Of a stretch of 64,000 bases of DNA, positions 4,201-55,388 are shown one piece after another. The number at the start of each line of letters is the position of its first letter. Position 1 is the stretch's first letter. The notes beneath the pieces were generated by a model. That model saw nothing but the letters and a program-made list of their open reading frames with translations. It made no database searches and was not told the origin of the DNA. Made by a program: the position numbers and the translations under genes. The DNA comes from Moniliella sp. 'wahieum' (Eukaryota), in NCBI GenBank assembly GCA_003971905.1, contig RSEE01000081.1, forward strand, positions 62,001 through 126,000, given 5' to 3'.

Positions 4201-5869
4201 GAGGCCGAACCAGCCCAGTCGTCCAGTCCAAGCCCCGACGTCGGTCTCACGTCCGCTTCGATGTCGCGGACGAGGAGTACCGTGCGTCGCCACCGGGTTC
4301 ACCGGGGCCGTCGCCGCACGCGTGGGGGAAAAGTACGCTTTTGCCTCGCGCGCGTCCGTGTCGGATGGGTCTGAGTCGGATACGGTGCGTCGCGTCCGGT
4401 TTGCAGCGTCGAACCAAGCCTACCGAGCTCCGGAGGACGAAGCTGGCGTGATGGGAGCGCGCCCGCCCACGGGCACCGTGACGACCGAGCCGCCGAGCGC
4501 CAAACCGCCCAAGATCAAACGCCGAGCCGTGTAGGCACCACGGCCGACGGCCAGCCCATCCTTCGTGGTCGAGGCCAGATTCGGTTTACTACTTCGTCGG
4601 ACGAGCTGGGTCGCAGTCGGACCGGTTGTCGGACAGGTCTGGTCCTGCGCCCTCTCACGCTGCCGATGTGGTGCGAGGGCGTGGCCAGATCCGGTTTGCC
4701 ACCTCGTCCGAGGCAGCCGATGCGCATTCCGGGAAAGACGGGTACGATACCGACGAGCCTCCGTCCGAGGTGGTGGAACGGGCGCATTCGGGCGCAAGTA
4801 GTGGCGAAGCGCTCCGGGCGGCACGGGAACGTGCGGTGGCCATGACCAAAGCCGCCTCGTCGGAGTCGTCGGTGTGGGGATCGGAAGAGGGCGCGGAAGG
4901 AACGAGGGAGGAGTGGAGAGGACGAGCCAGGGTGGCGGAAGTGAGTCGGTGGGTGCGGCAGGGGACGATGAGCAGGATCTGGGGTCGGATGAGGAGGAAG
5001 AGGAAGATGACGACGATGAGGATCCCATGTTGTCCGAAGAAGAGTACACTGCTGAGGACCTGGCTGCGCTCCGGCCCACGTTTGATGCCGAGTGGGGCGA
5101 GGAGGAGGAGGAGAAGGAGTCGAACGAGGATGACGAGGCTGATTTGGACTCGGCCTTGCACCTGGCTGAGATCCAGAGGGAGTACGCACGGATCAAAGCG
5201 GGCATTTGCAAGACCGGCATCGATGGACCGTATCCTTGTCCCAAGACGAGCATCCTCTTGACCCGAGCACTGGCGAAGCCATCACCACCACGCCCTCTGC
5301 CCTGGCGCCGATCGAGGCGGACCAGTCGGGGGGGAAGGGCAAACCGTCGCGTTTCAAACAGGACCGAGTGGCACGTGCGTTTGCAGCCCATGCGGCGGCC
5401 CAGGCCGGTGCGCCGGGCTCGGGAGCCAGCCTGGGACAGGGCACCGGCCTGCCCGAGGGCCAGATGGGCACGCCCAAACCCGTGATGGTCATCCCGCACT
5501 TGGCGCCACTGCGCACGACGCGGTCGGTGCGCCGGTGCAGGAACAGGATCTACGCTCAGCGCGCGGCGTGGAGCTGGAAGGTGCGTCGGACGAGGAGATG
5601 GCGCTTGCTCGAGATGGCCAAGGAGCGTCTGGGCTGGACGCGACGACGGAAGCGCCGTCGGGGTCTGGGTCTGGGTCCGGGTCGGGGGCTGCGCGGCCGA
5701 CGGAGGTGGGGGCGGTGCAGGAGCGCGGGCGCGAGCCGCCTTCGATCGGCCGGGCGAGCCGGGCGAGCGGGACGGAGGCCACGGTGCGGCGGCGGCGGAT
5801 GGACCAACGTCAACGGCCAAGCCAAAGCGCATGTCGCGCTTCAAGGCGGAGCGGCTGGGGCTTCGCTGA
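1293..5869 (+). CDS. Bud27/URI-like protein (DUF3835-type C-terminus), long and low-complexity, split by several indels
   Basis: N-terminal '[13 protein letters not shown]' resembles the NEEGLP motif of fungal URI proteins. '[19 protein letters not shown]' (~5140-5200), 'KPSRFK' and terminal '[14 protein letters not shown]' (5831-5869) match the fungal Bud27/URI C-terminal pattern. Joined across several ORF fragments. Confidence 0.65.
1909..2046 (+). repeat. (TCTGCT)n coding microsatellite, poly(Ser-Ala)
   Basis: Directly visible hexamer run inside the CDS. Confidence 0.9.
3595..3770 (+). repeat. Glu-Pro repeat region with a duplicated '[14 protein letters not shown]' unit
   Basis: GAGCCT/GAGTCT hexamers and a ~40-nt duplicated block. 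Confidence 0.85.
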
Positions 5870-5909
5870 GGCTCGATGAGAGGAGCACGTGGGAAATGCA
5901 TCGACATGT

Positions 5910-6100
5910 CCATTCCATGTCCAGTCCAGCCATCCATTCGATCCTCCATGCTAACCCTCCTTGTCTCCCACGATTCCATCCCATTCTGTTCCATCCATTC
6001 ATCCATTCCATCCATTCTATCACCATTCCATTCCATCCACTCCATCCATTCTCTTTCCCCCATCCCATCCATCCATCCTGCCTTCCAGCCCAGCCCATCC
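5910..6100 (+). repeat. Degenerate (CCATT/CCATC)n pentamer satellite in the 3' flank of the Bud27-like gene
   Basis: Many ccatt/ccatc units, directly visible. Confidence 0.8.
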
Positions 6101-6295
6101 GACGGCAGATAGACAGCAGGCGACTTGTACAGGAATACATGGCTTCACTTCACATCCCACCTGCGCAGCTTGAAAGTTGCAGCCCCCCAACCCTACGCCC
6201 CGTGACGCTGCACCTCCGCCAGCGCCAGCAGCCGCACTCACCCGAGGCACCGCCCCCCACCCCCACCCCACCACCACCCTTCCCCCCCCGCCGCC

Positions 6296-8484
6296 ATGTC
6301 TGCGCCCGCCGCCCTCGACCCCTTCGAGTTCACCCCGCCACCGACCCCCCGTACCCGCCACCATCGACCCCTCCCCTTCTCCCGCCGCCCGCCGCGGCCG
6401 CTGCGCGCAGGACGGCTGGACCCCGCCCGAGTCCGTCCCGCTCCCCGCCTCGACCACTGCGCTGCTCGACCCCTCCTTGCCGCCCTACAGCCCCACCCCG
6501 CACCACTCCCCCTTCGCCTTGGACGACGAGGAGGACAGGGCCGAGCCTGTCGCCACGCCTGCCCCCAACCCTGCTCCCGCTTCGCCTTCCCCTGTGCCTG
6601 CCAAGTCCGACCTGCCCGCCCCCGCCCCCGCCCCTGCCTCTGCCGTGCCCGCCCCCCGCCCCGCCTAGCGGGTCGGCCGAGCCCGCGGTGACCGAGGTGC
6701 GCATCGTGGATGCGCACAAGGCCGGTGATGCCAAGGGGGCCGGGTACATTGTGTATGTAGCGCGAGCCAAGTTGGCCAATGGTTTCCCTCGAGGCGGCGC
6801 GCGGCGGTACAACGAATTCGAAGCGTTTCGACATGCTTTGGTTCGGCTCTACCCCGTCCACCTTGTTCCGCCATTCCCGACAAACATTCTCTCGCCGAGT
6901 ACGCCGTCAAGCAGACGCGTGCAGTGGACGATGCAACGACGATCGCACGGCGTAGGCGGATGCTGCAATCGTTTTTGCGCCGTCTCGCCACCCACCCCGT
7001 CTTGGGCCACTCGCCTGTTTACCTCCACTTTTTGGATGGTCGTCTGTCCTGGGCGCATGTGGTCGCTTCGCCGCCACTCTCGACCCTGCCGCGGTCTAAC
7101 TTGCGCGCTCCGACGCACGACGTGGCGCGCGTCGGCCCAGCTGCCGTCCCGCCTGGCGCCACCGACGCCGACTTGGACGATCCCGATGCGTTTCGCTTGG
7201 CAGCCAGTGTGGCAGCTGAGGCAGCGGCGTACGACGCGTTGCCCCTCCCTCCTGCTTCGACGGCGCTGCGTGAGCCCGACACGCACTTTCAAGATGCCGA
7301 AGCGTTTACCGATAGCTTCACCACCCACTTGACGGGCACGATGGAAAAACAATTGTCGACTGCAAAAGCGGTGGCACGAAGCGGCAGCCGACTATGCCGA
7401 ACTGGAGCGGTGTTGAATGCGTTTTCGTTGACTGAGCAAGGCCGTTGGCCGAAGCGATTGAGCGGTGTGGTCAAGCGTCAGACGCTTCGTTTGTTGCGAC
7501 CGGCACGATGTTGCAGTCGTGGCAGGAAGACTTTAGTGAGCCGTTGCACGAGTATGCGCAGTACGGTGCCATCTTGCAAAAACTGCTCCAGTGGCGGCAC
7601 ATGAAACATGCCCAAGTCGAGGCTGTCGCAACGGGGCTCGAGGCACAGCGGGCGCAGTTGGAGGAACTGGAGGCGGTGGATGCCCATGCAGGTCGGTTGA
7701 CTGGCGCGCTGCAGCGCGGTGGCCGGTCCGGCTTACAAGCTGCCTTGGCATCCTCCAGTCCAGGCGGGGAGGATGGGGTGCGAGATGGTGTGAATAGTCT
7801 TGCGCCAGTCGCTCCCGCTCCCTGGGGCGACCTCGATGCCCAGCTCCAGCCTCAGCCCCAGCCCCAGCCCCAGCTTCGCTGTCCATCTACGGCAGTGCGG
7901 CAGAAGATGCCGAGTCGGAGGATTGGGTGGGAGCGAGCTCGAGTGCGACGGGAGAAACGGCTTCCAGCATGCCGGCCGGCAGCCGCACCAGTGCCGCGCC
8001 GGCACCCGCGCCAGGAAGCATTGCGCGTGCTGCGTCTGCGGCGCGAGTTGCTGCGGGTGGGACTGGGGGGCGGTTTGGTACGTCTGGGTTGCTGGGTGCG
8101 TTGGGCCATACGCTCTCTTCGATGCTGGATGTTGATCCGGAGGGCACGCGGCGCTCGACGGCCGCTCGGTTGCGCGGTCAATTGGCTGCGCTGGAAGGGG
8201 GCTGGGGTCTGGCGGAAAGGGACTTGGCTTATGCCAACCAGACCATCCAAGCTGATCTCGACCGGTTCCAACGTACCAAAGTCACTGACTTTCGCCAGAT
8301 GCTCATCCGGCTCGCTCAGGCCCACCGCGCTGCGGCGGCCGAGTCGTTGGAGGCGTGGCAGGCGGCTCAGCGCGCCGTCGAAGCCATCCCTGCCCCGGAA
8401 GGTATGCCCGAGTCGAGTCTACTTCGCCACCAGCAACGCGAAGGCTCTGCCCTCCCTTCCAATGACTTTTCCTCCTCGACCTAA
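6296..8484 (+). CDS. SNX41: Sorting nexin Snx41/Atg20-type (PX + BAR), frameshifted
   Basis: PX motifs 'YIVY...RRYNEFEAFRHALVRLYPVHLVPP', 'IARRRRMLQSFLRRLATHPVL...HFLDG'. BAR region 'EPLHEYAQYGAILQKLLQWRHMKH', 'ANQTIQADLDRFQRTK'. Confidence 0.85.
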
Positions 8485-10373: not shown

Positions 10374-11344
10374 TTACTTGGGCCCATGTTGTCGCCTCGT
10401 ATTGGTTGTCAACTTGGCTGCCAACCGACGCGCAGCTACCGAGGAAGAGGGAGCGCGATGAAGGGAGGGAGGAGGAAGACAAGGAAGACAAGGAAGAAGA
10501 AGTAGAGCCCAGGGGGCGGGTTGTAGTGTGGGGCCGAGAGCGCGAGGCAGTCTGCTTGGCCTCATGCCACAGCCGATGTGCCTCCTTCGTCGGTGGAGGG
10601 GGCAGAAGCGACGGGAGGACGCCCAGCCAAGGCGGGCACGCACTTCGTCCTCGTTGCGCTGCACACCAAACGCACGCCACTTGTCCTGCCGCAAGTGCGC
10701 ACGCAGTTTGGCGTTCTGCTGCGCTGGATCGGACCAGAACTTGTCCTGGTCCTCTTGCAGTTCGGCCGTGCGCTGCTCACCCCGCCGCCGCACCCGCTCC
10801 GTTGATCGAGTCTTTTCCCGCACGGTAAATGGGTCTTCTTCCTTAGGTGCCAACCCATCGGCAACTGTAGCGGGGGGGGAGAGGAGGTAAGGTCAGTACT
10901 ATTATCCCGGTGCAAAATCAACGTGACGAAGAGAAAGAAGAAGAAAACAGACAACGTACATTCGTGGCTCCAAGTTCCTGCTCGTTCATCGTCCCAGGAC
11001 GTGACGCGCTCCCGCACGCCATGGACAGCAACGTAGCGTGTATGTTGGGGATCGGTCTCGATGGCAAAGCGAGCAGAGCAGGAGGGGCAGGAGGCGGAAA
11101 GCGCCAGACAGGGATGGAGATACGTAGATACCTGTTTCTTGTCCGCATTGAACCGCCGTCCTTTGGCGATCGACTGGCCACACGCTTGGCACACCACATC
11201 CACCGGCATGGCAAAGCGCACGACCAAGCTTCCGTGCTCAGCTAGCTTGCGCGCGCGCGCGCCCAACGGATGGGCTTTGTTGAAGGGCTCGTAGCGGGGG
11301 TCCATGTCGGGCGGGTAGTACCGCCCCATGTTGAAGCCCTGCAT
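10374..11344 (-). CDS. CWC16-family splicing factor, CCDC130/Saf4 (YJU2B) type
   Basis: 'MQGFNMGRYYPPD...HPLGARARKL..GSLVVRFAMP...CQAC...GRRFNADKKQV', 'CPSC...IETDPQHTRY', 'EDPF', 'WSDPAQQNAKLR'. Probable intron ~10870-10960. Confidence 0.9.
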
Positions 11345-12826
11345 GGTGGGGCAACCGCCGAGCACGCTGCGCTCGCGCTGGGCCAGGGAAGACGGTGGAG
11401 GGCAGGCGGTGGCAGCCTTGGTGGTGCGCTCCGGGGCTGACGCAGGCGATGGCGCTGCAATGTTCAAACGTCCATGGAGGATTTTGATTTCACCAGCTGC
11501 TGACGTACTGTGGTTCAGTCGACGTCACGTGACGAAGGCCGCAGGCTTGATATGACGTCAAGCTTCAAGTGTCGCGTCGTACGGAAAATCGTCTGGTCTG
11601 CGTCAGTACTCAGTACGTACTCAGACGAAGAGGGCCCTGGGGACATGATGGGTACCATGGGTGCCCATCTCGGGGGAATCAGATCTCAGATCGGACGTTG
11701 GACCCGTAGAGGCGGCTCCGCAGGCAAGCCAGCGTGGGCTGGCCACCGGCTACCCTGTCCGACCCTGTCCCACGTCGAGAGGGGGATCGATCTAGCCGAG
11801 GGATCTGGCCTCTGGGATCGCATCGATCGGAACACCGACAAGCGCAGAGGGGCGCCACGCCAGAGCTAGCGCCTCCCAAACGGTACAACATACACCGTAG
11901 TACCACACGATACATACTAGAAGTAGGCATTCTCTTCCGTCTGGGCTTCTGCAGGCCAGCATTGCCTCGCTTGAAGCTCACAGCTCCCCTGGCTTAGCTG
12001 CTAACGTAGCCGACGTAGGGCCTAGGGCCTAACGCGTGCGTAACGCTAACGCGCAACGGAGAAGGCGATTGAGAATTGAGATCTCAGAATTGAGTCTAAG
12101 ATCTGAGATCAAGACTGGGATCTGAGATCTGAGAATGCACTGCTCCACCGACGGCAGCGCGAGCTTGTGGCATGTGAGCCGCTGCGCTGCATTTGCAATT
12201 GGGAGCCATCAAAGACTATCGACAGCGACGCCCTGAGTCCCAGGCCTTAGGCCTTAGGCCGGCCTTAGGCCCCTTCGACCTGATGACGCGGACGCCCCTG
12301 GACGCTCTGTCCTACATATATCGTACGGGGCCCTGCGGTGGCTGGGCGTGCCTGGGCGCCTGGACCCGCATGCACATGCTCTTTAGATCGTAAGAGGTGG
12401 ATGATCGATGAGGCGGATCGAAACCCCAGGTTCTCCGATGCTCACAAGTATTCAATGCTTGCGGTGCAGCCAAGAATTAATGCGACCTGCGCCGCGTCAA
12501 GAACAAAAAAGACCACGAGGCAGGCACGAACGAGCGAGGGAGGATCCCCTGGATCCCCCCACACCTCCCCCGTGTCACATGGAACTCTGGACTCACACTC
12601 TACGCAAGCTATCCCTTAAGGCACAATTGGTAGGCAGTAGGCGCAGGCAGGCTCCAATGCACACCCCACACCCCAGCACCCAACACCCAGATACGCCGAC
12701 ATCGATTCGACAGACTAGGAAAGAAAGCCGAAAGCCGCAAGCCGCAAGCCAAACGCCAAACGCGGGGTGACGGTGACTAGATGACTAGGGAGTGTGCTGT
12801 GGGGCACGACTTGCAGAATCATATCA

Positions 12827-14884
12827 CTAGTCACTTGCGGGATCACTTGTGGGGTCACATGGGTCACATGCATCACATGAGGGGGTTGGGCCAGTGACAC
12901 TAGTGATAGGGACTAATGAATCGACCAATTCCACTCGGTCCACGCGGGTTCCAGCTGAGCCACAGAGGGGAGGAGGCACTGTTGCCAATCGGGTTTGGGC
13001 GGTGCGCTCCAGCTGGGAGGGACGACGCGGCGGAGGTAGGGGAAGGTGGGTCGGTGGTGGCGGGACTGGTCCTGGCACTGGTTCGGAGGAGGGGGGACGG
13101 GCGCGGGATGCGGGACCCAGGGCCGCAGGGCGGATCCGTCGCCAAATACGTCGTTGAACGGTACGCGAACGAGAGCCGGAAGGAGAGGAAGAACGAGAAC
13201 GAGAACGAGAACGGGAATGGGAATGGGAATGGGACTGAGAAGGAGAATGAGAACGAGAATGAGAATGAGATCGGGAACGGGAACGGGAATGGGAATGGGA
13301 ATGGGAATGGGAAGCAAGTACTGATCCTGATCCTGGTCCTGGCCCTGTTGCTTGGGTTAGTCCTTGGGTTGGGCCTGGGGTTGAGCCTGGACTGTCGCGT
13401 ACCACAGCGACGGGAGGCAAGTGGGGCCAGAGAAGAAAGTAGCGTCGATCTTCAGGGTGGGGAGGGCGACCGAGCAAGTCACGTTCGGCCTGGCTTAGTG
13501 CGCGACGACGTACGTACTCGGCCCCACGCACCACACACTCCAGCTGCGCAACCAGCGATAACTCGTACTGGTACGCGTGCACGCCCAACCCATGGTGAAG
13601 CGTACGTTCGGTCGCGTTGGCGCTGGTCAGCGCGCAGTGGGACGCAGCACGTTTCACCTCCACCTCCACCTCCTTCTCCTCCTTCTCCGCCGCCGCTTCC
13701 ACATTCACTTCCACTTCCATACCTTGCGATCCGGACAACTCGACACTCGGGTGGCAGTTGTCTCGCGGGTAACAGGCGCAACGGGCGAAACGGGCAGAGC
13801 GTGGGGCGACAGCGACAAGCACACAGACGCAGGCTCAATCGCAGTCGCAGTCGCGTCCCTAGAACAGGAAAGGTCAGAGACGAACACCTTATCACTGTTA
13901 CGGGTGCCTTTGCTCCGCCCTCCGGCGCACGGGCACCATCCCGATCATCATCACGATCATCATCACGATGACCATCACGATTGCCATCACGATCACGACC
14001 ACGATCACGATTACGATCCAAGCTGTACTGCCGTGCCCAGAGAGCGGTGATGGGCACACTGTTGGCGGGACGTTCGCGGAGTGGCTCGGGGGAGGCGGAG
14101 GCGGGGGCGAGATGGGAGCCAAACTGGTCCAGGTCCAGGGGAACTCGGACTGAGTTGGGTCGCGGTCGGCTGGACAATCGGCTTGCAAGGCTCACACGTA
14201 GCGGTAGTGGCAGCGCGCGGGTCGTCAGGCGTATGCGGGTCGCGATGGCCACGACCACGATCCCGATCACGAGGTGCACGGTCTGAGACGAAACGTGGCG
14301 CGAGGGGGGGGGAGGGAAGGACGAGAGGAAGGAAGGGTGCTGACAGATTGACTGTGCCCTAGCCCTGGTTTGAACGCCGTCTGGGGCGAGGAGGGGGAGG
14401 GACAAGAACCAGAACCAAAACCAAAACCAAAACCAGAACCGGAACCAGAACCAGAGACAGAGGGGCCACTTTGGACGCTGGTCGCGACGGTGCTGGTGCT
14501 CGAGGTGGTACGATACGAGGCCATGCGCTCCGACATGCGCTCCGACTCGGCCGACGTGGACGTAAACGAACTTTGGCATGCGATGGAAGAGGTGGACGAG
14601 TCCCATAGGCGTGGGGCTAGCGGCGGGCGGATAGCGCGGGCGGAAGAATGTGAGGACACATCCAAGGCCAAGGGCGAGGGGGCGTAGCCCAAGGGAGCCT
14701 CAGAAGAAGAAGAAGGAGAAGGAGAAAGAGAAAGAGAGAGGGAGCCAAACCCGCGGGGGGGGCCGGGGCGGGTGGGGTAGACTCGGTGCTTGCGCGGCGC
14801 TTCATTCTGGCTTGTTGACTGACACAGGAGGGCGAGGGTGCGCTGATGCCGGGACGGGGGCGGAGGATGTAGCGGAGGGAGCAC
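12827..14884 (-). CDS. Hypothetical Ser/Pro-rich low-complexity protein (fragmented)
   Basis: Overlapping minus-strand ORFs (12827-13822, 13479-14606, 14267-14884) with one globular-looking segment 'HAYQYELSLVAQLECVVRGAEYVRRR...YFLLWPHLPPV'. CT-rich leader upstream on the minus strand. No family recognised. Confidence 0.45.
13193..13312 (-). repeat. GAGAAC/GGGAAT hexamer repeats, encoding (SH)n/(SR)n on the minus strand
   Basis: Directly visible. Confidence 0.85.
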
Positions 14885-16523
14885 AAAGGGGGGAGAGGGA
14901 GAGATGAGCGAGGCGGGCTACCGCGTCTGCGTCTGTGTGGAGTAGGTGTGGCCGGGTGAGGGGCAGAGGTTTGGAGGGGGGGGGACGGAAGAGGAGGGCA
15001 TGCGGAGGGGAGGGGAGAGGGCAAAGCAAAGCAAAGCAGTGTCCAGGCCAGGGCAACTAGAAGCGAGGACCACAGCGTTGCCCCGCACGCAAAAGGAGGA
15101 GGAGGGGAAAAGGTGGAGGAGGGGACGATGACGGTGTGGGACCAGAGAGGAGAGAGGTGATATTAGGCGTGGACAGGTGGGTGCCGAGACGACTGCCGGC
15201 CATTGGCTCCCTCTTGGCAGACAGCCGCGCGGCCACCGTCGGAGGATCGATGATGGTTGGTCCCGGTTTCCACCATTCTATCGATGGATCGGGGAGATCT
15301 GAATATCTGAATCTGAGGTGAGGATCTCAGTCTGAGATACTGACTAAACGGCTGAGCTCAGCCGCTTAACTGAGCGTCTGAGTCTAACCACTAGTCCCTA
15401 CGCCGTGTACGATCCTACAAGCGTACTCAGTCTGGTACTCCGTGTCGTCAGCGTCCTCAATGTGTAGTCAGTACTCAGTGTACTCGGATTCAAAGTTACT
15501 CCGCACTACGTACTACCCCTTCTGTAGCGCTTTGGAGGCGGGGGCTGGCGTGGCCTGGATGATATGGATGCGGCCGACAGGGTGACATGTGGCGTGCGCC
15601 ATGTGGCGGAAGCATCGATCATTGATCATCGACCATCGATCATCAATCCGACGCCGACAGCCCCCTTGGGATCGATGATCCGTCGCTGCCATCCCACATC
15701 CCACACTCAGGAACGACGCCACCAACCCCCGGTGCTCCAGTGCTGCCTGCCTGGCTGCCCCAGATCGCGCCCCATCCGACGGTCGCATCGATGGACGAGC
15801 GTCGCTGCGGCCAATGCCCGATGCGACGGAAGCGAGGCAGAGAGCAGTGCACGGCAGGGCACCCTCCGCTACCCGTCAGGCGTCAGGCGCGGACACTGAG
15901 CGCGTACTGAGCTCAGGACCTCACATTGTCACTGGTGAGGGCCACCGCACTCTGGCTTCTCCACGTGGGTCGATCGGTAGGCGCAGCACAGCACAGCACA
16001 CGCTCAGTACTCGCCGTACTTACCGGTCACTAGGTCCCTAGTCGGACTAGTCGGACTAGTCAGAGGCCAGATCTCAGATCTCAGATCTGAGACCTCATTT
16101 CAGACCCAGGCAATTCCGCATTCTGTATTCCTTCAGAATGGCCTCTTGTGTACATTTGTGTACGAGCCAAGCCACCCCTCTGCTCATCGAGCTCATCGCT
16201 ATGTGCAACGCAGGCACCCAATAGCCCTTTCCGATCCACGCCTCTCCCCGCACCCATTTGGGCAGGCGAGCAGTGTTTCTCTCCTTCGTGCTCTCGTCAT
16301 CGATCATCGACCATCGCGCCACCCTCCACATCCTTCATCGACGCCTGCCCGGTGCGCACTGGCACGCTCGCCAGAGCTTCCGCTTCCGCACGACATCCTC
16401 CCTGTCCCGCTCCACCATCCAATAGTTGTGCCGCTGTTGTGCAAAGTTTTGTATACCTGCAAAGAACGACCGAGGAGTATTTATACCTGTCTTACTCAAA
16501 TACTGCGGGATCTGAAGGCCAGA

Positions 16524-16638
16524 GACGTCGTGACGTCACTCCTCTGAAGGTCAAATTTGTTGCCAACGTCACTACCTGAAACGGTCATCAGATGATACGT
16601 CGTCAACGTCACCCCCCTCTGACGGTCAGATACGTCAG
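16524..16638 (+). repeat. Three imperfect direct repeats ACGTCAC-n-CTGA-n-GGTCA, rich in CRE-like ACGTCA
   Basis: Copies begin at ~16533, ~16566 and ~16606. Confidence 0.65.
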
Positions 16639-17616
16639 CGAGGTGTCCATGGGCGGCATCCGACAAATCTGGTCCTCTTAGGCTCGCTCTCCCTATAATG
16701 GGTTACTACAGCTACTACACATACTACTACTCTTCTTTTCGAGCACCATCGAATGTTGTGCAAGCGTTTTTGAGGGTATACTGTTTTGCGTTGCGATGAG
16801 TCAATATGGATTTGTGGGCTCGCCATTGAGACGTCTTGGAAATGTATAAGCGCGAAATCACTCAGTCCCAGAATCGTCTGTGCGGTCGTCGTCATCGCCG
16901 TCTGCACCCTCTGCACCAAGAGAGGTTGACTGCAGTGCCTTCATTGTCCCCTGGCGAACATGCGACAGAATTCGATAATTCTTACCCAGTGTGGCAGGGG
17001 CGTGACATTGTGCGTCGCTTGCGCTGTCTTGATCGTCATCTACTGTATCATTTGCCTACGCGTTTTCCTCATCAGCTGCCGCTGAACGGCCAAAAATCAG
17101 CTTTGCATCGGGCTGCAGGCGGTCATAGTGACCGGAAATGGGGCTGAACACACATTGACATTGGAATGGGGCGAGATGGTGCGGATCGAGAGGGTATGTA
17201 CGATGATGGTTGGGCCGTCGGGGGTCGAATAGAGCAAAAGCCAATTCGACAAGGAAGCCAAGTGCAAGATGCGCACTCAACAACCTCTCCGGACGAACAG
17301 CACACACATCTTGGAGATGACAAAAAACTGGTATAGTGCAAATAATAGCCAGGGCCGGTTGGGTTTGGGACCGATGGTGTCATGATAATCAACCCCATCC
17401 CTCTAGAAATACGCATGTTTTCTCGGGGTCAGGTAAGGTAGTATCCTCTCACCGCTGCGCTCTCAGAGTGTTCAGTGCTTGGTCCGCTTCTAGCTACCAG
17501 GAAGCTTTTCTTTCGAGGACTTCCCGTAACACGGGCGGTCATGAAAAATGAATATGTTGCTTCGGCCAACCAAATCAGCCAAAAATGAATTACCCCTCCC
17601 GAAGGAGGTTTGGATA

Positions 17617-17685
17617 CTTTGGCCACATGAGGCTAAGGGTTATGGCCACATGCGGTCAAGGGCTTTGGCCATATGCTTTCAAGCG
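17617..17685 (+). repeat. 23-bp imperfect tandem repeat x3
   Basis: ctttggccacatgaggctaaggg / ttatggccacatgcggtcaaggg / ctttggccatatgctttcaagcg. Confidence 0.8.
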
Positions 17686-17836
17686 CTTATCCCAAATGCG
17701 CAAACGCTTAACTGTTGATTGGATGTGTGCTTGTATCGGCTCTCTAACCGGCTGGTTGGGGCTCGCATCAGTGCAGAAAACTAGTAGAAATTTACAGGCA
17801 GGGCATCACTAAGGTATAGAATGCATTCTAAAGTCA

Positions 17837-18702
17837 CTATGAAGCGATTACACGGCAACCACGGTTAGATGCGAAGTAGGACGGAAGTCCCACAACGTAA
17901 TAGTTCAGTGAGCTGCACAGCAAGTGGCAGGTTAGTGTTAGGGGAGCGCGCACTAGGGAGGAGCTGGCCAAGTCAGCAGCAGCATACAGACAGTTAGCGA
18001 GAGACATAGAAGTTGTGCGACGGACTCACGGGTCAAGCGGTCAAGTCAGCCAGTAGCAGGGACAAGCGGTATGAAGTCGGAATGTACACGGGTAGGGAGG
18101 ACGAGGTCAGGAACAGCGTCGGCATATGACAGATGGGACGTACGATGGCGAAACAGGTCATATGAGTCGAGGCGAACAAAGCGAGACGACCCAACTGTGA
18201 GATTAGATTCCGTGCATCCAGCAGCTGAGATACCGTGTCAGTGGCAGGACAACTCCAAGATCGAAGGACGGAGGATGTACGCTGGCAAAAGGTAGACTAG
18301 CCAAGTGAGAGGACCACAGACGAGGCAAACCATGCGAGCGACACAGCCAAAGTGAGCAGACGGACAAGGGTGGTCCGAAGTCGAGAGAAACGGTGCATAC
18401 ATATCGCGCATGCGACCCACATGGTCAGCAGAAGTGACGGGAATGTTGCGAAAGCGGGTATGTACGAAGGCGCTGCGGACCATATGAAACGAGGACAAGA
18501 TGGCCCGCGAGGGGGAGTCTGTGTATGCAGGCGGCAGGGCCAGGTAAGCAAGAGAGCGCTGGCGGGAAAGAGAACACGTACGACAGAAGCAATGCACGGA
18601 CAGTGAAAGGGAGAGGCGGTGTGATGGTGCAGGGGGGGTGTCCAACAGCGGTACAGACGACGAGGAGGACGGAGTGTGACGGGAGAGGGAATGGATACGT
18701 AC
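17837..18702 (-). other. Dense cluster of spliceosomal donor, branch-point and acceptor motifs (putative multi-intron or nested-intron transcript)
   Basis: Minus-strand donors GTACGT/GTACAT/GTATGC/GTGAGT at 18702, 18581, 18465, 18400, 18280, 18143, 18087, 18029. About 11 CTRAY-like branch motifs. Long AG-free stretches. Confidence 0.55.
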
Positions 18703-20438
18703 GGCTGCAATGCAGACCAGGCGCCGAGGGCTGGGGGCGGGACGAGGAAAGCGGGCAGTAAGCAGTGCAGGCATCAGCGATGGTGATCTTGGTGGCCAAG
18801 GGAAGAAAAGGGTACTATTGCGCTGTGGCACAGAACACTCTGCAATCTGCTGGCTGAAGAGAGCGGATACCAGTTGCTACGGGGGCAATGAGAGGGGCGA
18901 CGGTGAGGAGACATGATGCAACCACAGAGCAGCAGGAGATTAAAGGGGCTCTCTCAGTGGGAAGCACCAGACCACAGACCCGCTTGGCAGAGTACATTGA
19001 CTAACCAAGCGTGAGCCCAAGTGACTCTCTCTGTGCGAAGCACTACAGCGCAGGCTACTCGAATAGAGGCAGGCGCCCGAGTGTTGAGCCACCTCCACTT
19101 CCTTATTGTCACTACCGTCTTTCGGCTTCTTTCGCTATGTGCCTCCTACCTACAAAACCTTCTAACCCCGCCTCTTTTCTCACCTCTCGGGTCCACTTTG
19201 CCCTTGACCCTTGCCTCGTCTCTCGCCTCGTCCCTCTCGCGCATGGTCCCCTTTCTCGCCTTTGGCTCGTTTCCCTCTTTGCTGTAACCCTCTTGGTCTC
19301 CCCTTGTTCCCCTTCTCTTCTATAAAACCTGCCTATTCTTAGATCCAATGATGATGGCCCAAGCCGCGACCATTCTTTCTCCTTCACCCTTCTTCTAGCC
19401 CCCCCACTTCTAGAAGAACACCTTTCGATCCGCTCACTTGCCCTCCCCCCACCCCCACAGTACGATTGCATCACTCTCGAAGACCATCCGGACTACAGAT
19501 CTCATCAGTATACTCCTTCATGGAAGAGGGAAGATGGCTTATAATAGCCTCTGTAACTCACGTGCAATGCCATCCACCACCCACGGTCTGCTCTTCTGTT
19601 TCGGATGGTACCCTGGCCTGGAAATGGGGGGGCGTGGACAGGGCGGGGGAGCAGGTAAAGCGCAGGGGCAGCGTGAGCAGGGAGGGGTGTGGGTGTGTTG
19701 TAAATGGGAGGGGCCACGCCACGTGACCTGCGCGTGCGACAGCGAAGGCTGGCAGACTAAGTATTTGAAGTGTGGTGCCGGTGATTGGCTCGTGGGTGAC
19801 CGGTGATTGCACATTTCAAGTGCCACGCCAAGCTGAGCGGCAAGCAAGCTGCATGGGCGGGGCAGGGCACTAGGCCACCCTGCGCTCACCCCAGCGCGGC
19901 ACCACCCCCACGAGGACTGGCACCAGGCGGGGGCCCCTGCCCGACACTGGCGCACTGCGTGGACGGCCGACGTGGCTGGCGCGTGCGCAGGGGCAGTGTG
20001 GTGTGTCTCTGCTGCCCCGTGCGGCTCGGCTGGCGGTGGCGGGCAGAAGCACGGGGGCAGCGAGACGATGCCAGCGGGAGCGGAGCGGCGCGGTGCCCAA
20101 CGCCAACGCGTCAACATCGGTGGCTGGCGCGCTGCTGGGCAGCCTGGCTGCTGCCTTGCTCCTGGCTGCTCCTCCTCCTGCTCGGCTGGTCGAACACCAC
20201 CACCTCATCCCTTCCCCCACTCCCACTCCCACCCCCACCTCCACTTCCTCCTTTCCCGCCCAGCCTCCCCTCCCGATACCCCTCCCTGCTTGCCCCCCTC
20301 TCCCTTCTGCTCCTCTGCGAGGACATTGTTTGCTGCATCGACTGCGTCGACCTCCCCTTGAAGCCCGAGCCACCCTTCTCCCGCCCTTCTTCCGCCTGCC
20401 TGCCTGTCTACCTGTCTACCCTTGTCTCTCGCTCCGCC

Positions 20439-21350
20439 ATGCACCCTACTTTGACCGAACGCCCTACCCGGCGCTCTCTGACCGCGCCGCCCTCCTCTCC
20501 ACCCTCCGCACCGGCGGTGTGGCCGCTGCCACGCCCTCCGCTGCCCCCACCGGCGCCGCTGCGTCCCAGCTGCCTCCCCTCCATCTGGGTCAGGGCCCCG
20601 ATGTATCTCTCCAGCACATCCAGCTGTCCCAGGCCCAGGCCCAGGCTCAGGCCCAGGCTCACGCACTCCATCTGCAGAACCCCGCATCGCTGCTGACCCA
20701 GCAGCTTGCTGCTCAGCAGCAGCAGCAGCAAGCCGAGCTCGCCCGCCTCCTTGTGCTCCAGCAGCAACACCAGCTCCAGCAACTGCAGCAGCAGCAGCAG
20801 CTCTTGCTGCTCCAGGCGCTGCAGCCCAGGCCGTGCAACAAGCCCAAACTGTCCAGCAGGCCCAAGCCGTGCATCAAGCACACCAACAGCACCAGCACGG
20901 CCTTCACCCGCTCGGCTATGCGCCTGCGTCCGACGTACCGGGCCAGCGGCACTCGTGGGCGCCTGAACCGCGTCGGTCCAGCGCACGCTTCTCCCCACTT
21001 CGACCGGCCGGCCACGTCGACCTTGGCCTTGGCTCCTGCCGCGCCGCAGCGGCCCGTGTCAACGGCCAACTTGGCCTCGAGCTGGCGCTCGGGCCAACGC
21101 TCCCCCCCGGCCGCGGCCCCGCCGAGCATTGTGATTGATGATATCTCCCAACTCTCCCTGGGAGGCGAGGAAGTGCCCGCTGCAGCTACCGCGCGCGGCG
21201 GGTCAAGGACCGGGAAGGTGGACCGATTCGTATGCCCCGTGGCCCCCCACCGATCCCGCCGAACTGCAAGCCTCCAACTTTCTTGCCCGCGCCAATACCA
21301 AGGTCCGCCGGGACGCCATTCGTGTTTTGGCTTCGGGACGGCACTCTTAG
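20439..21350 (+). CDS. Conserved fungal hypothetical Gln-rich protein with C-terminal 'RxPRGPP...NF..R...RR.A' motif (frameshifted)
   Basis: PolyQ/(AQ)n region. After restoring one C in a homopolymer the C-terminus reads 'PIRMPRGPPTDPAELQASNFLARANTKVRRDAIRVL', a motif I recall from uncharacterised fungal proteins. Confidence 0.6.
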
Positions 21351-22545
21351 GTCCAAGCCCTAGACTGGGTGACTACCTACACCTATCTACCTTGGAGTTG
21401 CTCGTTCCCACAATGGCTCCGCATTCGTTTTTTTTCTTCTTCTTTTCTTTCCTTGCTGTCTCTTTCTCTCTTTTTCTTTTTCTTTCTTTTTGTCTTTCTT
21501 CCCTTTTTTGTCTTTCGTTTCGTTCTTTGTCTTTCTCAGACCCCTCCTGCTTCCTTTCCACTCCTACTTTGTCATTCGCTTTCGGGGGGGAGGGGGGGCG
21601 TATTTCCTTGTTCTGTTCTTGTTCTTGGCCTTTTATCTCTTGTGCATCCTGTTCCCGTTCCTGTTGTTGGGGCCCTGCTGCGCTGAGCCGGTCCTTGGAC
21701 CACCCCTTTCCTCCCTTTCTGGTCTTGTCCCGTTCCTTGGCCGCACCTGGACACTGCGCCCCAGCTCCCAGCCCCAGCTTCAGACCCTAGCAAACCCCGC
21801 ACGACAGCCTGGAATGCCCTTGGTTTCAATGGCCTGCCCTGGCGCCGCCCTGTCGTCATCCACTCCCCAATCCCCCATCTCCAAACTCCACTCTCCAATT
21901 CTCAAAAACCCAGTCCCCCATCTTCCCATCTACTAAACAAACTGAAACTGACCAACTGCATCCCGTTGTACCTATCTTTGTTTTGGTTGCGGTTGTCTAG
22001 TCCCATACCGTTTCGTCTCATCGATCTCATCTCAGATGTCAGATATCCTGTTGTGGCACCCCACTCGTTTCGTCTTCCCCTTCTCCCTCCCTCCCTTTCT
22101 CTTGCGTCTTGCGTCTTGCGTCTTGCGTCTCCTGTAGCCACGCTGGTGTCCTACCGTCCTTAGCAAATGACAAGCACGCAGGAAGGCAATGCTGTTGTGC
22201 TTTGCTTTAAAAGATAGTCCCGGCGTTTGAGGGGGTTGTATTGCCGAGAGTGAGAACGAAGTAACTTGCCGAAGGCCTGTGCTCTCGATGGCGTTAATTA
22301 GACCTTGGGCTTTGGGCGAAACGGCGAAGGACAAGGACCCAAACCAGAAAAATAAATACCAAATGGCATGCCCAGGGCGGAACGCCGGGGGGCAGGCAAG
22401 GCGGAATTCCATCGGCTGGAACCAATCAAGGGATCTGGCGAGGCGACTAAGATCTCAATTGAGGATTGAGGCCGGAGGGAGTACTGGCCTGGACGCGACG
22501 GCTGGAGCGGGGAGACAAAGTTGCTTGCCACCAGCCAACTTGACC

Positions 22546-23448
22546 ATGGCAGCGCCAACCTCGCATGTGTCGATGGAGACAGTCGCTTCGGAGCGGCGGA
22601 CCGCGCTTCTGGCCCTGCGCAAGCACAAACTCGATGAGGAAGCGGGTAAGGTGCCGGTGGGTCAGAGCGAGGTGATTGACGCGCTGGTCCAGCGCTGTTT
22701 CCGCTCGTTTGATCCCAAGACGCGCCAGATGCGTCGGACGGGCGTGGCAGAGGGCGTGGAGGATACAGTGGAGATGGGTACGTTGCACTACGCTATGCTA
22801 CTGTTTGGGTTGGTTTGGGGGTTGGGTTGGGTTTGCATGGTGGGATGCAGGCAACGGAAGCTAACCTTGTTTGGTGGACACTTACTAGCTGTCGATGGCC
22901 TGCAAGCCAGTGTGCTGGCCTTGGACGAGGTGAAGCGAGGTGAAGATATTGTATGTGCACTCTCTTGGTGATGTGTGCCGGCACGTACCAACTCATTTCC
23001 CAGTGTGGATCAAGATCACTGACCCCATCTCCCCATCGCAGGACTTGCTCAACATTGCGCCCCAGCGACCCAACTGGGACTTGAAACGCGACCTCAAGAA
23101 GCGTCTGGCCAAATTGGAGAGGAGACCAAGAGGCGATCAACACCTTGATTCGTACGTGCTTCCATCCTTCTCCCCATCCCCCTATCCCCCTAGCATCCTA
23201 GCCTTCTAGCCTCCTATCCCCATATCCCTTTGCCTGTTCCACAACGTGGACTTGCTCCCGCTTCTCTCTTTCAACACGACGACCGAACTAACTTAGGTAC
23301 TGGCAGGTCGGCGCATCGGAGGCCAAGGTGCCACGGGCACAGTCGACACGGCCCTTGCCCATCTCGCGCGGACGAGCCAGCAGAAGAGAGGAGAGACTCG
23401 GACGAGGGCGAACAAGAGCAGCGAGAGGAGCAAACGGAATACTACTAA
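22546..23448 (+). CDS. CWF18: Pre-mRNA splicing factor Cwf18 (CCDC12); introns 22778-22888, 22951-23041, 23152-~23306
   Basis: 'ERRTALLALR', 'FRSFDP', 'DLLNIAPQRPNWDLKRDLKKRLAKLERR'. Canonical GTACGT/GTATGT donors, CTAAC/CTGAC branch sites and YAG acceptors. Confidence 0.92.
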
Positions 23449-40822: not shown

Positions 40823-41882
40823 TCAGCTATGCCTGCGGCTCCGCCTCCTCCTCATCCGCTGGTTTCTCCTCATTGGGCGAGCTGGCTGGGTCTCTCCCTT
40901 TTTCTCCGCCAAGACGTGGCGCACCACCCGCTCGACCAGACGTTCCATTGCCGTTGTCGTCTCTTCTCCATCTTGAGGAGCGTTCCCACTGGTTGCCAAG
41001 GCACCCTGAACAGAGCGTACCACAAACTTGCCCGCCATGTCAAACTCCACGTTGACCAACTTGCCAAGGGCAAACGCGGCCATATCAATGACCGACTGCG
41101 AATGCGCAATGAGCATCACAGTAAACTCCACCGTGTCCGCTTTGACGGGAGAGAGAGGGAAAGTCACTTGATTCGCCTCGTACTCTTCCGGCGAAAGCTG
41201 TGCTTGCTCTGCGGTCAACGCCCCTCCTCCAGGAGGAGACACATGGATCAAAGTGAGACTGACGCCGTTGACGCTAATGTACCCTTTGGGGATCAGGTAC
41301 GGAGCCAAGGTGGCTGGTCGAGGAAGCTCTGGGTCGGTAGCAAGCCGGACCGTGAGCGTGACTGCATTGCCCGTCTGACTGTGCCCAACAATTTGGCCCA
41401 CCGTATCAACGTGGCCTTGAACCACGTGCCCCCCAAACCGTGCGTGGCCCGCCATGGCACGTTCACAGTTGACCCTCTGTCCCGCCTTGAGGTCTTTCAA
41501 GTTGGTCCGACGTAGTGTCTCGGGCGCCAGTCCCACCTTGAACCATCCCCATCCTCCGTTTTGGAGAACTCAGTGACAGTCAGACAGGTACCTATCGGTA
41601 CGCCATAACAAGGCAAGCGAAGGACAGAGTTAGAACAGAGTCAGAACAGAGTCAGAATAGGTCAGAATAGGTCAGAACAGGTCGAACTTGCTTGTAACCC
41701 TTTCGAATCCGAAGAAAAGAACGTACCATCCACCGCAATGCTGTCCCCCAAATGGCAATCGTCCAAAATGGAAGCTGCTTGCCGCCAACGGTCAGGGAAA
41801 GCCGTTGCCACCCGCCTTGTGTGGCGTCTACTTCTTCGACGGCGCGAACGGGAGTGGAGATCTCAACGAGTCCGGTGAACAT
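40823..41882 (-). CDS. RIB5: Riboflavin synthase; intron 41592-41726
   Basis: 'MFTGLVE', spliced 'DGTCLTVTE', 'GLAPETLRRTNL...VNCERAM...RFGGHVVQGHVD', 'KGYISVNGVSLT', 'VNVEFD'. Confidence 0.97.
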
Positions 41883-42986: not shown

Positions 42987-43970
<984 letters not shown>

Positions 43971-44911
43971 ATGGGTGCTACTCGTGGCCAGAAGGAAGCT
44001 TGGTTTGCCAAGCTCAACGAGCTGCTCGAGGCTTACAACTCGATCTTCTTCGTCAATGTCGACAATGTCGGCTCGCAGCAGATGCACCAGATTCGTGCTG
44101 CTCTCCGTGGCAAGGCTGTTGTCCTGATGGGCAAGAACACCATGGCCCGCCGTGCCATTCGCCAGATCGTTGGCGAGAAGCCGCAGTACGAGAAGATCCT
44201 GCCTGCTGTCCGTGGCAACATTGGCTTTGTCTTCACCAACGACGACCTGAAGGAGGTTCGTGACTTGATCCTCGAGAACCGTGTCGCTGCCCCCGCTCGT
44301 GCTGGTGCCTTTGCGCCCGCCGATGTGGTTGTCAAGGCTGGCAACACCGGTATGGAGCCCGGCAAGACCTCGTTCTTCCAGGCCCTCAACATCCCCACCA
44401 AGATTGCCCGTGGTACCATTGAGATTGTCTCGGACGTCCGTGTGGTGGAGGGTGGCACTCGTGTCGGCACTTCGGAGGCGACGCTGCTCAACATGCTCAA
44501 CATCTCCCCCTTCACCTACGGTATGAGCGTCACCTCGATCTACGACAACGGCAACGTGTTTGACAACTCGGTGCTGGACGTCAAGGAGGAGGACCCTTGT
44601 TGCCTCCTTCCTGGCTGGTGTCCGCCAGATTGCTTCGATCTCGCTCGCGATCAACTACCCCACCATTGTGTCGGTACCCACTCGCTCGTCAACACCTACA
44701 AGGACCTCATCGCCATTGCCCTGGCGACCGAGATTGACTTTGAGGGTGCTGCTCAGGCCAAGGAGTACCTCGCCAACCCCGAGGCGTTCGCCGTCGCTGC
44801 TGCTCCCGCTGCTGCTGCGGCGGCGCGGCCGAGGCTGCCCCCGCCGAGGAGAAGAAGGAGGAGGAGGAGGAGGAGTCTGACGACGACATGGGCTTTGGTC
44901 TGTTCGACTAA
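43971..44911 (+). CDS. RPP0: 60S acidic ribosomal protein P0 (uL10); indels after ~44595
   Basis: '[27 protein letters not shown]', '[14 protein letters not shown]', terminal '[13 protein letters not shown]'. Confidence 0.99.
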
Positions 44912-45300
44912 ACCTTTCTTCGTTTCTTCTTCCCCAACCCTGCTCCAACTCGGTACGCTGCTGCACTCGTCCCCGTACAGTGTTGCAATGCTGTCAAAAT
45001 GCATCCTGGAGCCGCTTAGGCTACCGGTTCGCACGTTACCTTGCGTTCGATGTTTGCTTGCCATAGCCCGTTGTTTCATATCATAGCCTTTCGTTTCCCA
45101 CCGCGTTTGGTGTGACTTTTCTATGTGTACGCTCGGCACGGAATGTGCAAGATGGAGAGAGGACGTGGTAATAGTTCCGTGAGGGCAGACATTAAGAAGG
45201 GGAAGTATGGACAGATGAAATACAGCCAGGTGATGGGGCAGGAGGGCGGTCGCAAGCGCAAGCGCAACGATAATAGGAGTGACAGTGTCCCTCCTTTCGC

Positions 45301-47734: not shown

Positions 47735-50016
47735 GGTGATGAGAGTGGAGGGGGTGGTGGTGTGAGGGAAGCAAGTGGCGTAGCAGGCGAAGAGCGAAAG
47801 AGAATAACGGCCCGCACAGAGTGGTAAGAGAGAAGCAGGAAGAAGAAACAGCTGCTGGCAAGGGGGGTGGGAAGGGCGGACTGGGTAAGTTTGCAACGCT
47901 GTGGATCGGCTTAAAACAGCGGAAGGGGCCAGAGTTTTATACGCGTGAATATTGAATAATCCTGTGATCATCGGTGCCTGACGACATCCATGTGCTCTCT
48001 GCTGCCTGGGGGCCCTATCTCTTTGGGCAGAGGAGGTGGAAAGGTGTTCAAAGCGCTAACCTCATAGCCCGGCGCCTGTGGCATACGCCGAAGGCGATGG
48101 CCGCACTATCCAGCCCGCTCTCCACCCCACACGTATGCAGCGTGTGACATGTGCATGTGAGGCGTGAGGCTCAGGCCGGCAGGGCCCGATCATTGATTCA
48201 CCACGATAAGATAAAGAGAGTGTGGATCAAACCCCTCACGCGCCCTGCGCCTGGCGCCCTTTCGTTGGATCAAAAGCGGGTATGAACAGGAGCAAACACC
48301 GACGGACTATTCGTCGTATTGGATGGACTACCAAGAGAGCTATCGACTCAATGTGATGACTGGGACGTTTTCACCAGCGTTCCTGGACCGTTTCCAGTTC
48401 ACACGGTCCAATAACACATCCCATATCCCACCCCATCCCATCCAACGCCCCCAGGGGAAACGGCACCGCCGCCACAATTCTTTCACATGGAGGAGAGAGC
48501 GTTTACCTATATCCGCAGACTAGACGGATCATCGATCATACCTCCCTCTGAAGTCCTGTCGTCTATTGCTTGAGCTTCCGGTTCCCTTTGGACGCTGAGC
48601 CTCCGCCTCACGCTAAGCAGATGCTGGGCCATCGGTTGATGCGGACGTTGGGCGTTGAACGTGTTGAACCCGAACAGAGCCGTAGATAAAGCCCGGGCGC
48701 GGCTAGGGCGCACTCAGACAGATCTCACTGCCCGTTCTTTCTTTTCGGTCCAAGGGTGGGGGGGTGTGGGGCCCAAAAGGGTACGGAGGCAATAATGGAT
48801 GATGGAGGGCAATCCTTACTCGTCAACCATCAACGTCAACCATCGAGGGGAAGAGGACGACGAGCGGGAGGAAGGCAGGGTGCAGGTGTTGCCGAATGTC
48901 GGCCGACCGCCATTGAATGATGGCCACGTCGGGGCAACAGAGAAAGCAGCGGCTGAAATAGATATGGCCTGTCAATTACTGTCAATATCACTTGTCACGC
49001 ATCCCACAGCCCCGGGCACAAGGCAGGCGAGCGCGGGGTGCTGATGCGTGATGCGGTTGCCCCGGCCCGGGGCTTGGAGGGCGGCGCCGTCGGTCGAGTG
49101 CGCGGCGCCGCTGCGCTTCCGCCTGCAGCGGTGCAGCGTGCAGGGTGCAGGTGCTGGCGCCCCACCAGCCACTGCGGGTGCAGTCTCCAGCACATCACCC
49201 GTCCCATCATGCATCATGTATCCATCATGCATCAGTGACCCCCCCTCCCGCACTACGCCACAGCACGCCACATCCAGCCCGGCTATCTGAAATCTCGTGC
49301 ATCCACACAGCCGCTGTGCCGGCAGCGGAGAAGCCGCGTTAAACTTTTATCGCCCTCTGTCTGCGGCGCGTCGTCGGCGCCGCTGCTCCGCCTCAGCCGC
49401 TTCCTTCCCGCTTCGGCGCAGTAGCAGCCTCAGGCAGGGGATGAGGGGGGGGGGTTACATTTTACACGTTACGCTTATACGGTACGTTTCCTCCGCGTCG
49501 TGGGACCCAGGAACCCTTTGCCCACCCTCACCACCTCTATCTGTCTACGTCCGCCCTGCCCCTCCCCTCCCGTCGCTCCCGGGAGCACACACGAGCGTAG
49601 ATGGATGCGATCCAGCAGCATGCTTAGCGTTCGTCGTCGGAAACACAATGGACCCCGTGGGGGGATAGGAATAGGCAACTCTGGTCGGGGGAAGAACAGT
49701 GAGAAAGTGAGAAAGAAAGCGAGAAAGCGAGGGAGCAAGAGAGGGAAAAAGCGAAAGCAAGAGAACATGAGAACAAGAGAACAAGAAAGGGGTAGCACGA
49801 GCGTCTGGGGGCCAACACGGCTACCGAACCAAACATACCAGCGGCGGGGGGGAGAACGAGGGGATCAATGCTGGTTCAACGTCAACGTCAACGTTCAACG
49901 TTCAACGTTCACAAACCGCTCCTGGCCTCGGATGGGAACGAGGCCAGAGCCAATGCAAGTGGGGGGAAGAAGCAGAGGATTAAATGGAGGCTACGCGAGC
50001 CCTGTCCGGCCAGCCG

Positions 50017-55388
<5,372 letters not shown>

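Follow-up and report, generated by a model that had tools for sequence, protein, structure and literature searches.

Recursive splicing removes long introns in steps, through ratchet points, at which a 3′ splice-site motif is joined directly to a 5′ motif (YAG/GT) with a zero-length exon between them, and which have been described in very long animal introns. Fungal twin introns (stwintrons) consist of canonical U2 units, one intron within another, of which the smallest is defined first (PMC7138796). According to the accessible portions of two reports, in strict stwintrons ([D], [L] and [A]) an internal U2 intron interrupts the donor, branch element or acceptor of an external intron, the external intron becomes functional only once the internal one has been excised, and in Lipomyces starkeyi the whole complex intervening sequence can also leave in one step (PMC5639578, PMC7138796). 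Lipomyces stwintrons sensu lato comprise two units in a coding gene, the internal one lying at the 5′ extremity of the external one, with donors abutting or 1 nt apart in the two cases where the accessible text states the distance (PMC7138796); the available parts of the literature searched on fungal complex introns describe two units, in coding genes, and no multi-level nest. Abortive use of the spliceosome is likewise described in excerpts on fungal telomerase RNA, whose 3′ ends are made by first-step-only spliceosomal cleavage (PMC4299874), on spliceosome-mediated decay in budding yeast (PMC3792478) and on Cryptococcus, where stalled spliceosomes trigger production of small interfering RNA (PMC6643885). 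Here, these systems were compared with a tract at positions 17837-18774 of a 64,000-nt stretch of Moniliella sp. 'wahieum' DNA (the window; contig RSEE01000081.1, positions 62,001 to 126,000, assembly GCA_003971905.1), for which an earlier note had proposed a minus-strand transcript with eight introns nested up to three deep. A cluster of splice-like motifs is present, real and strand-specific; the tract may well belong to an untranslated minus-strand transcript, as intron-type sequence in which a few short introns of ordinary kind have competing splice sites, a reading that we offer tentatively, and the eight-intron nest was not supported.

All eight donor-like hexamers, 11 branch-like motifs and eight YAG acceptors listed in the earlier note were recovered at their minus-strand coordinates, and its AG-free spans (18027-18194, 18299-18472 and 18561-18704, minus strand) were exact. 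Three donor and branch pairs reach the next donor before any AG, as had been claimed, and further motifs were absent from the earlier list:

18465/18428, minus strand: donor/branch pair, next donor 18400 reached before any AG
18143/18110, minus strand: donor/branch pair, next donor 18087 reached before any AG
18087/18049, minus strand: donor/branch pair followed by donor 18029, the AG lying inside its hexamer
17987, 17953 and 18420, minus strand: additional donor-like hexamers GTATGC, GTGCGC and GTGGGT, respectively
18559, 18473 and 17953, minus strand: additional YAG ends
18253 and 18025, minus strand: additional GAG ends
18763; 18310 and 18202; 18167; 17942; 17913, minus strand: additional branch-like starts, GCTTAC; TCTCAC (two); ACTCAT; CCTAAC; GCTCAC, respectively

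Counts on the minus strand were nine donors, nine CTRAC and 17 CTNAY, compared with one, zero and one on the plus strand; a plus-strand explanation was rejected, as that strand holds one donor-like motif, no CTRAC and 115 AG. The palindrome CATATG occurs at 18125, 18163 and 18486 on the minus strand (three copies vs 0.19 expected), and the most over-represented hexamers of the tract are TTCATA and TCATAT; none of these is a splice signal. Interpretation of CGTAC[GA]T and CATATG as transcription-factor sites was set aside, since the strand bias and branch spacing fit splicing better.

The tract differs from each of the described systems. Among 35 candidate complete introns at 17700-19000 on the minus strand, none rebuilds a donor or an acceptor at its junction and two create CTGAC across it; with no donor or acceptor rebuilt, no outer intron needs the prior removal of an inner one. 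When the published fungal consensus (donor GURWGY, branch DYURAY, acceptor HAG, as given in the accessible part of PMC7138796) was applied strictly, with the donor loosened to GURNGY, complete introns were obtained for four donors only (18143, 18029, 17987 and 17953), and the eight-unit set is therefore not canonical. The tract is thus not a strict stwintron, for want both of a junction that rebuilds a donor or acceptor and of a canonical eight-unit set. It also falls outside the sensu lato class: 42-137 nt separate its neighbouring donors, the units claimed number up to eight or nine, and it is non-coding. Some donors lie close behind an AG (18282/18280 by 1 nt, 18705/18702 by 2 nt and 18473/18465 by 7 nt), but no AG is joined directly to a donor and the whole tract is under 1 kb, so that these are not ratchet points. 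The tract shares with abortive spliceosome substrates a donor and strong branch motif without a well-placed AG, a likeness that is a functional analogy only, and differs from them in having no telomere template, RNA family match or transposon features and in having AGs within 55-127 nt.

Motif density was compared with 2000 dinucleotide shuffles and with other pyrimidine-rich tracts. CTRAC occurs nine times vs 2.6 in shuffles (P = 0.0005), CTAAC four times vs 0.6 and GTAC[GA]T six times vs 0.5, and the tract ranks first among all 938-nt segments of the window, on both strands, for these motifs. CTNAY lies 28-46 nt downstream of eight of the nine donors, where 2.67 would be expected with random branch positions (P = 0.0002), and CTRAY is found at that spacing for six of nine (P = 0.00045); the donor-to-branch spacing is that of short fungal introns. 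The AG count is 15 vs 25 expected from base composition (ratio 0.59), the lowest of 2524 segments, and the HAG count is also the lowest in the window. Tracts of at least 60% pyrimidine number 14 in the 64 kb, this one included; the other 13 contain at most three donors, six CTRAC and two donor and branch modules (here nine, nine and eight) and at least 21 AG, so that in density and AG content the tract is an outlier and not within their range. Segment 21301-22238 on the plus strand is still richer in pyrimidine, yet almost without donor or branch motifs, which argues that the motifs are not created by composition alone. After masking of the motifs, the 3-mer composition of the tract was the second most intron-like in the window. 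The most intron-like was that of 21400-22000 on the plus strand, which was used as a negative control; this stretch lies just after a polyglutamine (polyQ) open reading frame (ORF) at 19874-21787 and is extremely rich in T and C, with 13% purine in one 100-nt bin. The proposed excess over shuffled and other pyrimidine-rich DNA stood for CTRAC, motif spacing and AG count, was weak for the published consensus and failed for single hexamers and AG-free runs; values for these last three are given below.

Introns placed in genes of the window provided a reference for the splice signals of this genome:

10959-10865, minus strand: intron of a Yju2-like gene, with GTACGT, TACTGAC and CAG
43537-43465, minus strand: leader intron of the ubiquitin-S27a gene, with GTGCGT, GCTAAC and CAG
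from 43831, plus strand: leader intron of the ribosomal protein P0 gene, with GTAAGT (ACAT next), CTGAC and CAG
41726-41592, minus strand: intron of the riboflavin-synthase gene, with GTACGT, five tandem CTGAC/CTAAC and TAG
58369-58280: intron of the RabGAP gene, with GTACGT, three branch motifs and CAG

Four further introns of 63-174 nt were placed in the amino-acid transporter gene against homologue P0002 (donors GTAGGC, GTTCGT, GTGAGT and GTACGT), and position +5 is G in every placed donor. The signals of the tract match these introns for most types. Leader and gene introns of the window (P0, ubiquitin-S27a, transporter, Yju2-like and RabGAP) have the same signals, sizes and pyrimidine-rich, AG-poor make-up as the tract, and window introns, like the tract, hold several branch-like motifs (five in riboflavin synthase, three in RabGAP); this likeness of the minus strand to the intron sequence of its own genome is the part of the earlier interpretation that stood, the specific nest being the part that did not. 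Since apparent leader introns are present in P0 and ubiquitin-S27a, judged from sequence alone, untranslated introns appear to occur in this genome. The tract is denser, with about one donor and branch module per 100 nt, where the transporter gene has an intron about every 370 nt, and unlike ordinary fungal leader introns it has exons of 10-53 nt and no coding sequence attached. In the riboflavin-synthase (lumazine-binding) intron at 41592-41726 on the minus strand, five tandem units of about 10-11 nt each carry CTGAC or CTAAC, as if the branch site had expanded as a micro-repeat.

Candidate introns and sites in the tract were as follows:

18581-18519, minus strand: candidate intron of 63 nt, with GTACGT, the non-consensus branch CTTAC and 26 nt on to CAG
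18702 to 18519, minus strand: donor GTACGT with the same acceptor, an alternative of 184 nt without its own branch motif within 150 nt
18297-18465, minus strand: donors GTACAT 18465 (CTGAC 18428) and GTATGC 18400 (CTCAC 18356)
18297 and 18282, minus strand: acceptors TAG (CTCAC 18309) and CAG, respectively, common to donors 18465 and 18400, giving candidates of 169 or 104 nt
18280-18225, minus strand: candidate intron of 56 nt, with GTACAT, CTGAC 18241 and CAG
18195, minus strand: CAG with CTAAT 18206, an alternative 3′ end for donor 18280 (86 nt)
17964-18143, minus strand: serial donors GTACGT 18143, GTACAT 18087 and GTGAGT 18029, with CTRAC at 18110, 18049 and 17997
17987-17913, minus strand: candidate intron of 75 nt, with GTATGC, ACTAAC 17936 and CAG
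17953-17837, minus strand: candidate intron of 117 nt, with GTGCGC, TCTAAC 17869 and TAG

Donor 18280 starts 1 nt past CAG 18282. The serial donors 18143, 18087 and 18029 each have CTRAC 32-38 nt downstream, and their first YAG is CAG 17964, which would give introns of 180, 124 or 66 nt; GAG 18025 overlaps donor 18029, and 18029-17964 is the most canonical unit. An ordinary short U2 intron was taken to be 56-180 nt long, with a donor of a placed type and a CTRAY branch followed 8-60 nt later by the first AG. Four candidates are of this kind (18029-17964, 17987-17913, 17953-17837 and, at 180 nt, 18143-17964), and two more resemble them except for the non-consensus branch of 18581-18519 and the unconfirmed GTACAT donor of 18280-18225. 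Spacers between intron units are 10-53 nt. By the strict-rule count of complete introns, the tract is in the top 5.9% of segments, alongside intron-bearing genes.

The motifs, strand bias, spacing, lack of coding signal and match to window introns were observed directly; transcription, its direction, the transcript ends and the choice of sites used are inferred. In the reading that we tentatively favor, the tract would make up the part of an untranslated transcript that bears its introns; this transcript, a long non-coding RNA or a long 5′ leader, would start near a switch in strand composition at about 19.05-19.1 kb and run leftward to about 17.8-17.5 kb. About four to seven short U2-type introns of 56-180 nt would be separated by very short non-coding exons. 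Donors 18702 and 18581 would compete for acceptor 18519, and donors 18465 and 18400 would be spliced to 18297 or 18282; donor 18280 may be joined to 18225 or 18195, donors 18143, 18087 and 18029 would compete for 17964, and the last unit would be 17953 to 17837 or, alternatively, 17987 to 17913. On this view, donor and branch pairs that have no AG of their own would be sites that compete or have decayed within larger composite introns, and GTACAT could derive from GTACGT by CpG transition. Inner-first removal would be possible but is not required.

A serious rival is that the cluster is of chance or compositional origin, the tract being pyrimidine-rich intergenic or promoter DNA that is not transcribed, or not spliced, and its motifs having been chosen after the sequence had been viewed; this is possible, though we consider it doubtful. 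Consistent with it are the abundance of pyrimidine-rich tracts (14 in 64 kb), the non-consensus form of three of the eight listed donors and three of the 11 listed branch motifs (GCTTAC, GCTCAC and CCTGAC fall outside DYURAY) and the fact that no structure, RNA family or coding signal was detected in the tract. AG-free runs and donor/acceptor order are also as chance predicts: the longest run, 176 nt, is ordinary compared with 196 ± 50 nt in shuffles of equal AG count (15), and the order gives eight runs vs 10.9 ± 2.15 expected (P = 0.134). Several results weigh directly against intron-type sequence. Counts under the published consensus barely exceed those in shuffles (GURWGY, three vs 2.3, P = 0.41; GURNGY, eight vs 4.4, P = 0.066; DYURAY, eight vs 4.2, P = 0.043), no single hexamer passes a look-elsewhere test, in which 25.7% of shuffles match the enrichment of the best one, and other hexamers of the tract are more enriched than GTACAT and GTACGT. 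The four strict-rule complete introns, all in the last 300 nt, compare with eight in RabGAP and six in the cwf18 region, and since the same rules return a cluster at 49701-51238 (plus strand) opposite a known gene, the measure yields false positives. GTACAT, which has A at +5 and accounts for three of the eight listed donors, is the donor of the best-spaced modules and is unconfirmed in placed introns; the GTACAT of the P0 leader overlaps a better donor, GTAAGT. No TATA box was found for the proposed minus-strand promoter, no coding sequence turned up downstream, the frames at 16600-17460 included, for which the tract could serve as a 5′ leader, and because the assembly carries insertions and deletions (indels) in genes, single splice motifs could be affected. 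On the other side, a chance origin has to accommodate a tract that is an outlier from the other 13 (nine, nine and eight), a spacing test (P = 0.0002) that rests on motif positions and not on composition, the lowest AG count of 2524 segments and three or four short introns that are fully canonical.

A true multi-level nest is unlikely; in this model the inner introns would leave first, by necessity or as a rule, and outer donors would thereby come within reach of later acceptors. An example order would be 18029-17964, 18087-17953 and 18143-17913, and likewise 18400-18297 followed by 18465-18282. The pairs 18465/18428 and 18143/18110 are without an AG for 127 and 81 nt, respectively, and removal of 18400-18297 would place AG 18282 about 39 nt from 18428, as removal of 18029-17964 would place AG 17953 about 27 nt from 18049; YAGs are at least as many as donors after each donor cluster, and smallest-first removal of nested canonical U2 introns is known from a Lipomyces 'stwintron sensu lato', as the accessible text reports (PMC7138796). 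However, the eight-intron, three-deep pairing of the earlier note depends solely on the selection of eight acceptors from 11 YAGs: of 165 such selections, 39 nest equally well, in balance and with every intron at least 40 nt long (24 of depth three, 15 of depth four), random interleaving of eight donors and eight acceptors is balanced 11% of the time, and the observed order does not differ from random. A bracket pairing of splice motifs is easily drawn in a pyrimidine-rich tract and is not evidence of nesting. Moreover, a separate branch motif lies 8-28 nt upstream of each of the eight acceptors, none of the outer signals is interrupted and a single step could remove the outer introns, which span 180-508 nt; donor 18702 lacks a branch motif of its own, and the GTACAT donors are unconfirmed. 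Introns 18029-17964, 17987-17913 and 17953-17837 cross one another and are therefore alternatives and not a nest, and the arrangement is described just as well by short introns in tandem, each with two or three donors in competition. That the tract is part of a protein-coding gene with small missed exons, perhaps with frames broken by assembly indels, is quite unlikely. Indels do disrupt the frames of P0 (three times), the kinase, the transporter and the PX-domain gene, no stop codon falls in any of the three minus-strand frames over 18428-18773 and the codon score, 9.4, comes close to the 11.4 of the transporter control, but the score is weak, codon-position guanine-cytosine (GC) periodicity is absent over 17860-18900, stop codons occur at shuffle frequency (19 vs 17.2) and the spacers between intron units are only 10-53 nt. 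Pfam gave no matches for the three ORFs of the region of at least 110 amino acids or for 38 further ORFs at 16.5-19.5 kb, and no homologues of the 212-amino-acid ORF, the longest of three long frames, were found by word search and exhaustive HMMER in two protein libraries; a coding gene was rejected on these results. By analogy with abortive substrates, AG-lacking pairs might stall the spliceosome after the first step and lead to decay, 3′ end formation or small RNAs, or the array might soak up U1 and U2 small nuclear ribonucleoproteins as a sensor or decoy; together, we regard such regulatory RNAs as highly improbable. Orphan donor and branch modules are present and genes for Yju2-like and cwf18-like splicing factors lie within 7 kb, but the idea rests on analogy, no telomere-template motif, RNA family or fold signal was detected in the tract, AGs follow the orphan branch motifs within 55-127 nt, and other sequence separates the tract from the splicing-factor genes, whose proximity may be coincidence. 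Very unlikely, too, is a non-coding RNA densely packed with eight or nine short-intron modules, several of them with no acceptor of their own, that would undergo ordered, multi-level inner-first splicing or hold spliceosomes after the first step, as a sensor of splicing capacity or decoy beside the Yju2-like and cwf18-like genes.

For the favored untranslated transcript with ordinary short introns, the following flanking features were noted:

17800-19050, minus strand: pyrimidine-rich (60-75% per 100 nt), AG-poor tract, from a 100-nt composition profile
19050-19470, plus strand: adjoining pyrimidine-rich tract, with TATAAA at 19322
17430-17836, minus strand: low-GC (46-52%), non-skewed stretch downstream of the array
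17617-17688: 23-nt tandem repeat, 3.1 copies
17592-17609, minus strand: CCUCC-UUCG-GGAGG hairpin adjoining the 23-nt tandem repeat

In most placed genes of the window the pyrimidine-richer strand is the sense strand, which points to the minus strand as sense in the tract. At about 19050-19100 the strand with the pyrimidine bias changes sharply, over about 50 nt, from minus to plus, and the switch at about 19070, together with TATAAA 19322 on the plus strand, looks like a divergent promoter region. The divergent neighbor would be the polyQ ORF (19874-21787, plus strand), for which no matches were found. UGUA-type elements lie at 17852 and 17796, and the putative minus-strand transcript may end within 17430-17836. 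A second promoter-like region was seen at 16480-16620, within an apparently gene-poor interval (14.7-19.8 kb); it contains a TGACGT(CA) cluster, CRE/ATF-like, at 16535-16612 and a TATAAA-like box on the minus strand near 16487.

RNA-family, structure and repeat searches gave no other identity for the tract. Rfam returned no match in the window at gathering score, and at E ≤ 10 two sub-threshold, chance-level matches in 16000-20500; a small nucleolar RNA (snoRNA) host gene was rejected because neither match is a snoRNA on the minus strand of the tract and because candidate introns of 56-75 nt are too short. No transfer RNA was found. A structured RNA was rejected on a fold z-score of +0.89 for the tract, and the z-scores of 17430-17840 (-0.31 and -0.49 for the two strands) were not significant. 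Telomerase RNA was rejected as well, TAACCCTAA, AACCCTAAC and CCCTAACCC being absent from both strands of the tract in a search for TTAGGG-type templates only; such a template would be complementary to about 1.5 telomere repeats. Neither tandem nor dispersed repeats were found in the tract in a search within this window. Origin by tandem duplication was rejected, as the nine donor-anchored units align only at the CGTAC core, with a mean column identity of 30%; the autocorrelation peak (z = 3.36) is below the shuffle threshold of 3.55 and a donor period of about 61 nt is not significant (P = 0.126). Introner-like elements were rejected because no sequence-similar copies occur within the window.

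The window has a GC content of about 60%, and Pfam matches identified scattered eukaryotic genes on both strands, among them the following; the best matches of the P0 gene (43971-45086, plus strand) are fungal ribosome structures, which marks the window as fungal.

10565-11524, minus strand: Yju2-like gene (Saf4/Yju2 family, pre-mRNA splicing factor; Pfam)
22231-22968, plus strand: cwf18-like gene (pre-mRNA splicing factor; Pfam, weak score)
further window genes (Pfam): Yippee, riboflavin synthase, ubiquitin-S27a, amino-acid transporter, kinase and RabGAP
43971-45086 (plus strand), 50237-51392 (minus strand), 5170-7601 (plus strand) and 45306-45700 (minus strand): conserved genes with frames broken by single-base changes

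The tract sits between the Yju2-like gene (about 6.5 kb away) and the cwf18-like gene (about 3.5 kb), an arrangement that may be coincidental. The P0 reading frame shifts three times with protein sequence conserved throughout, the kinase and PX domains are each divided over overlapping frames without space for an intron, and the amino-acid transporter shows several frame changes relative to its homologue. The assembly seems to contain about one indel per few hundred bases within genes, and ORF-based gene finding is therefore unreliable in this window. Ubiquitin-S27a (minus strand) and P0 (plus strand) are divergent neighbors about 430 bp apart within 42990-45086, and a short-period simple repeat at 14370-14470 reads as runs such as WFWF, NQNQ and PKPEPE in different frames.

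If transcribed and spliced as proposed, the tract would yield an unusually intron-dense untranslated RNA and would offer a natural test bed for how fungi choose among packed, competing donors and branch sites. Were ordered multi-level removal true, fungal complex introns, so far two-unit structures of coding genes, would come to include many-unit arrays in a non-coding RNA.

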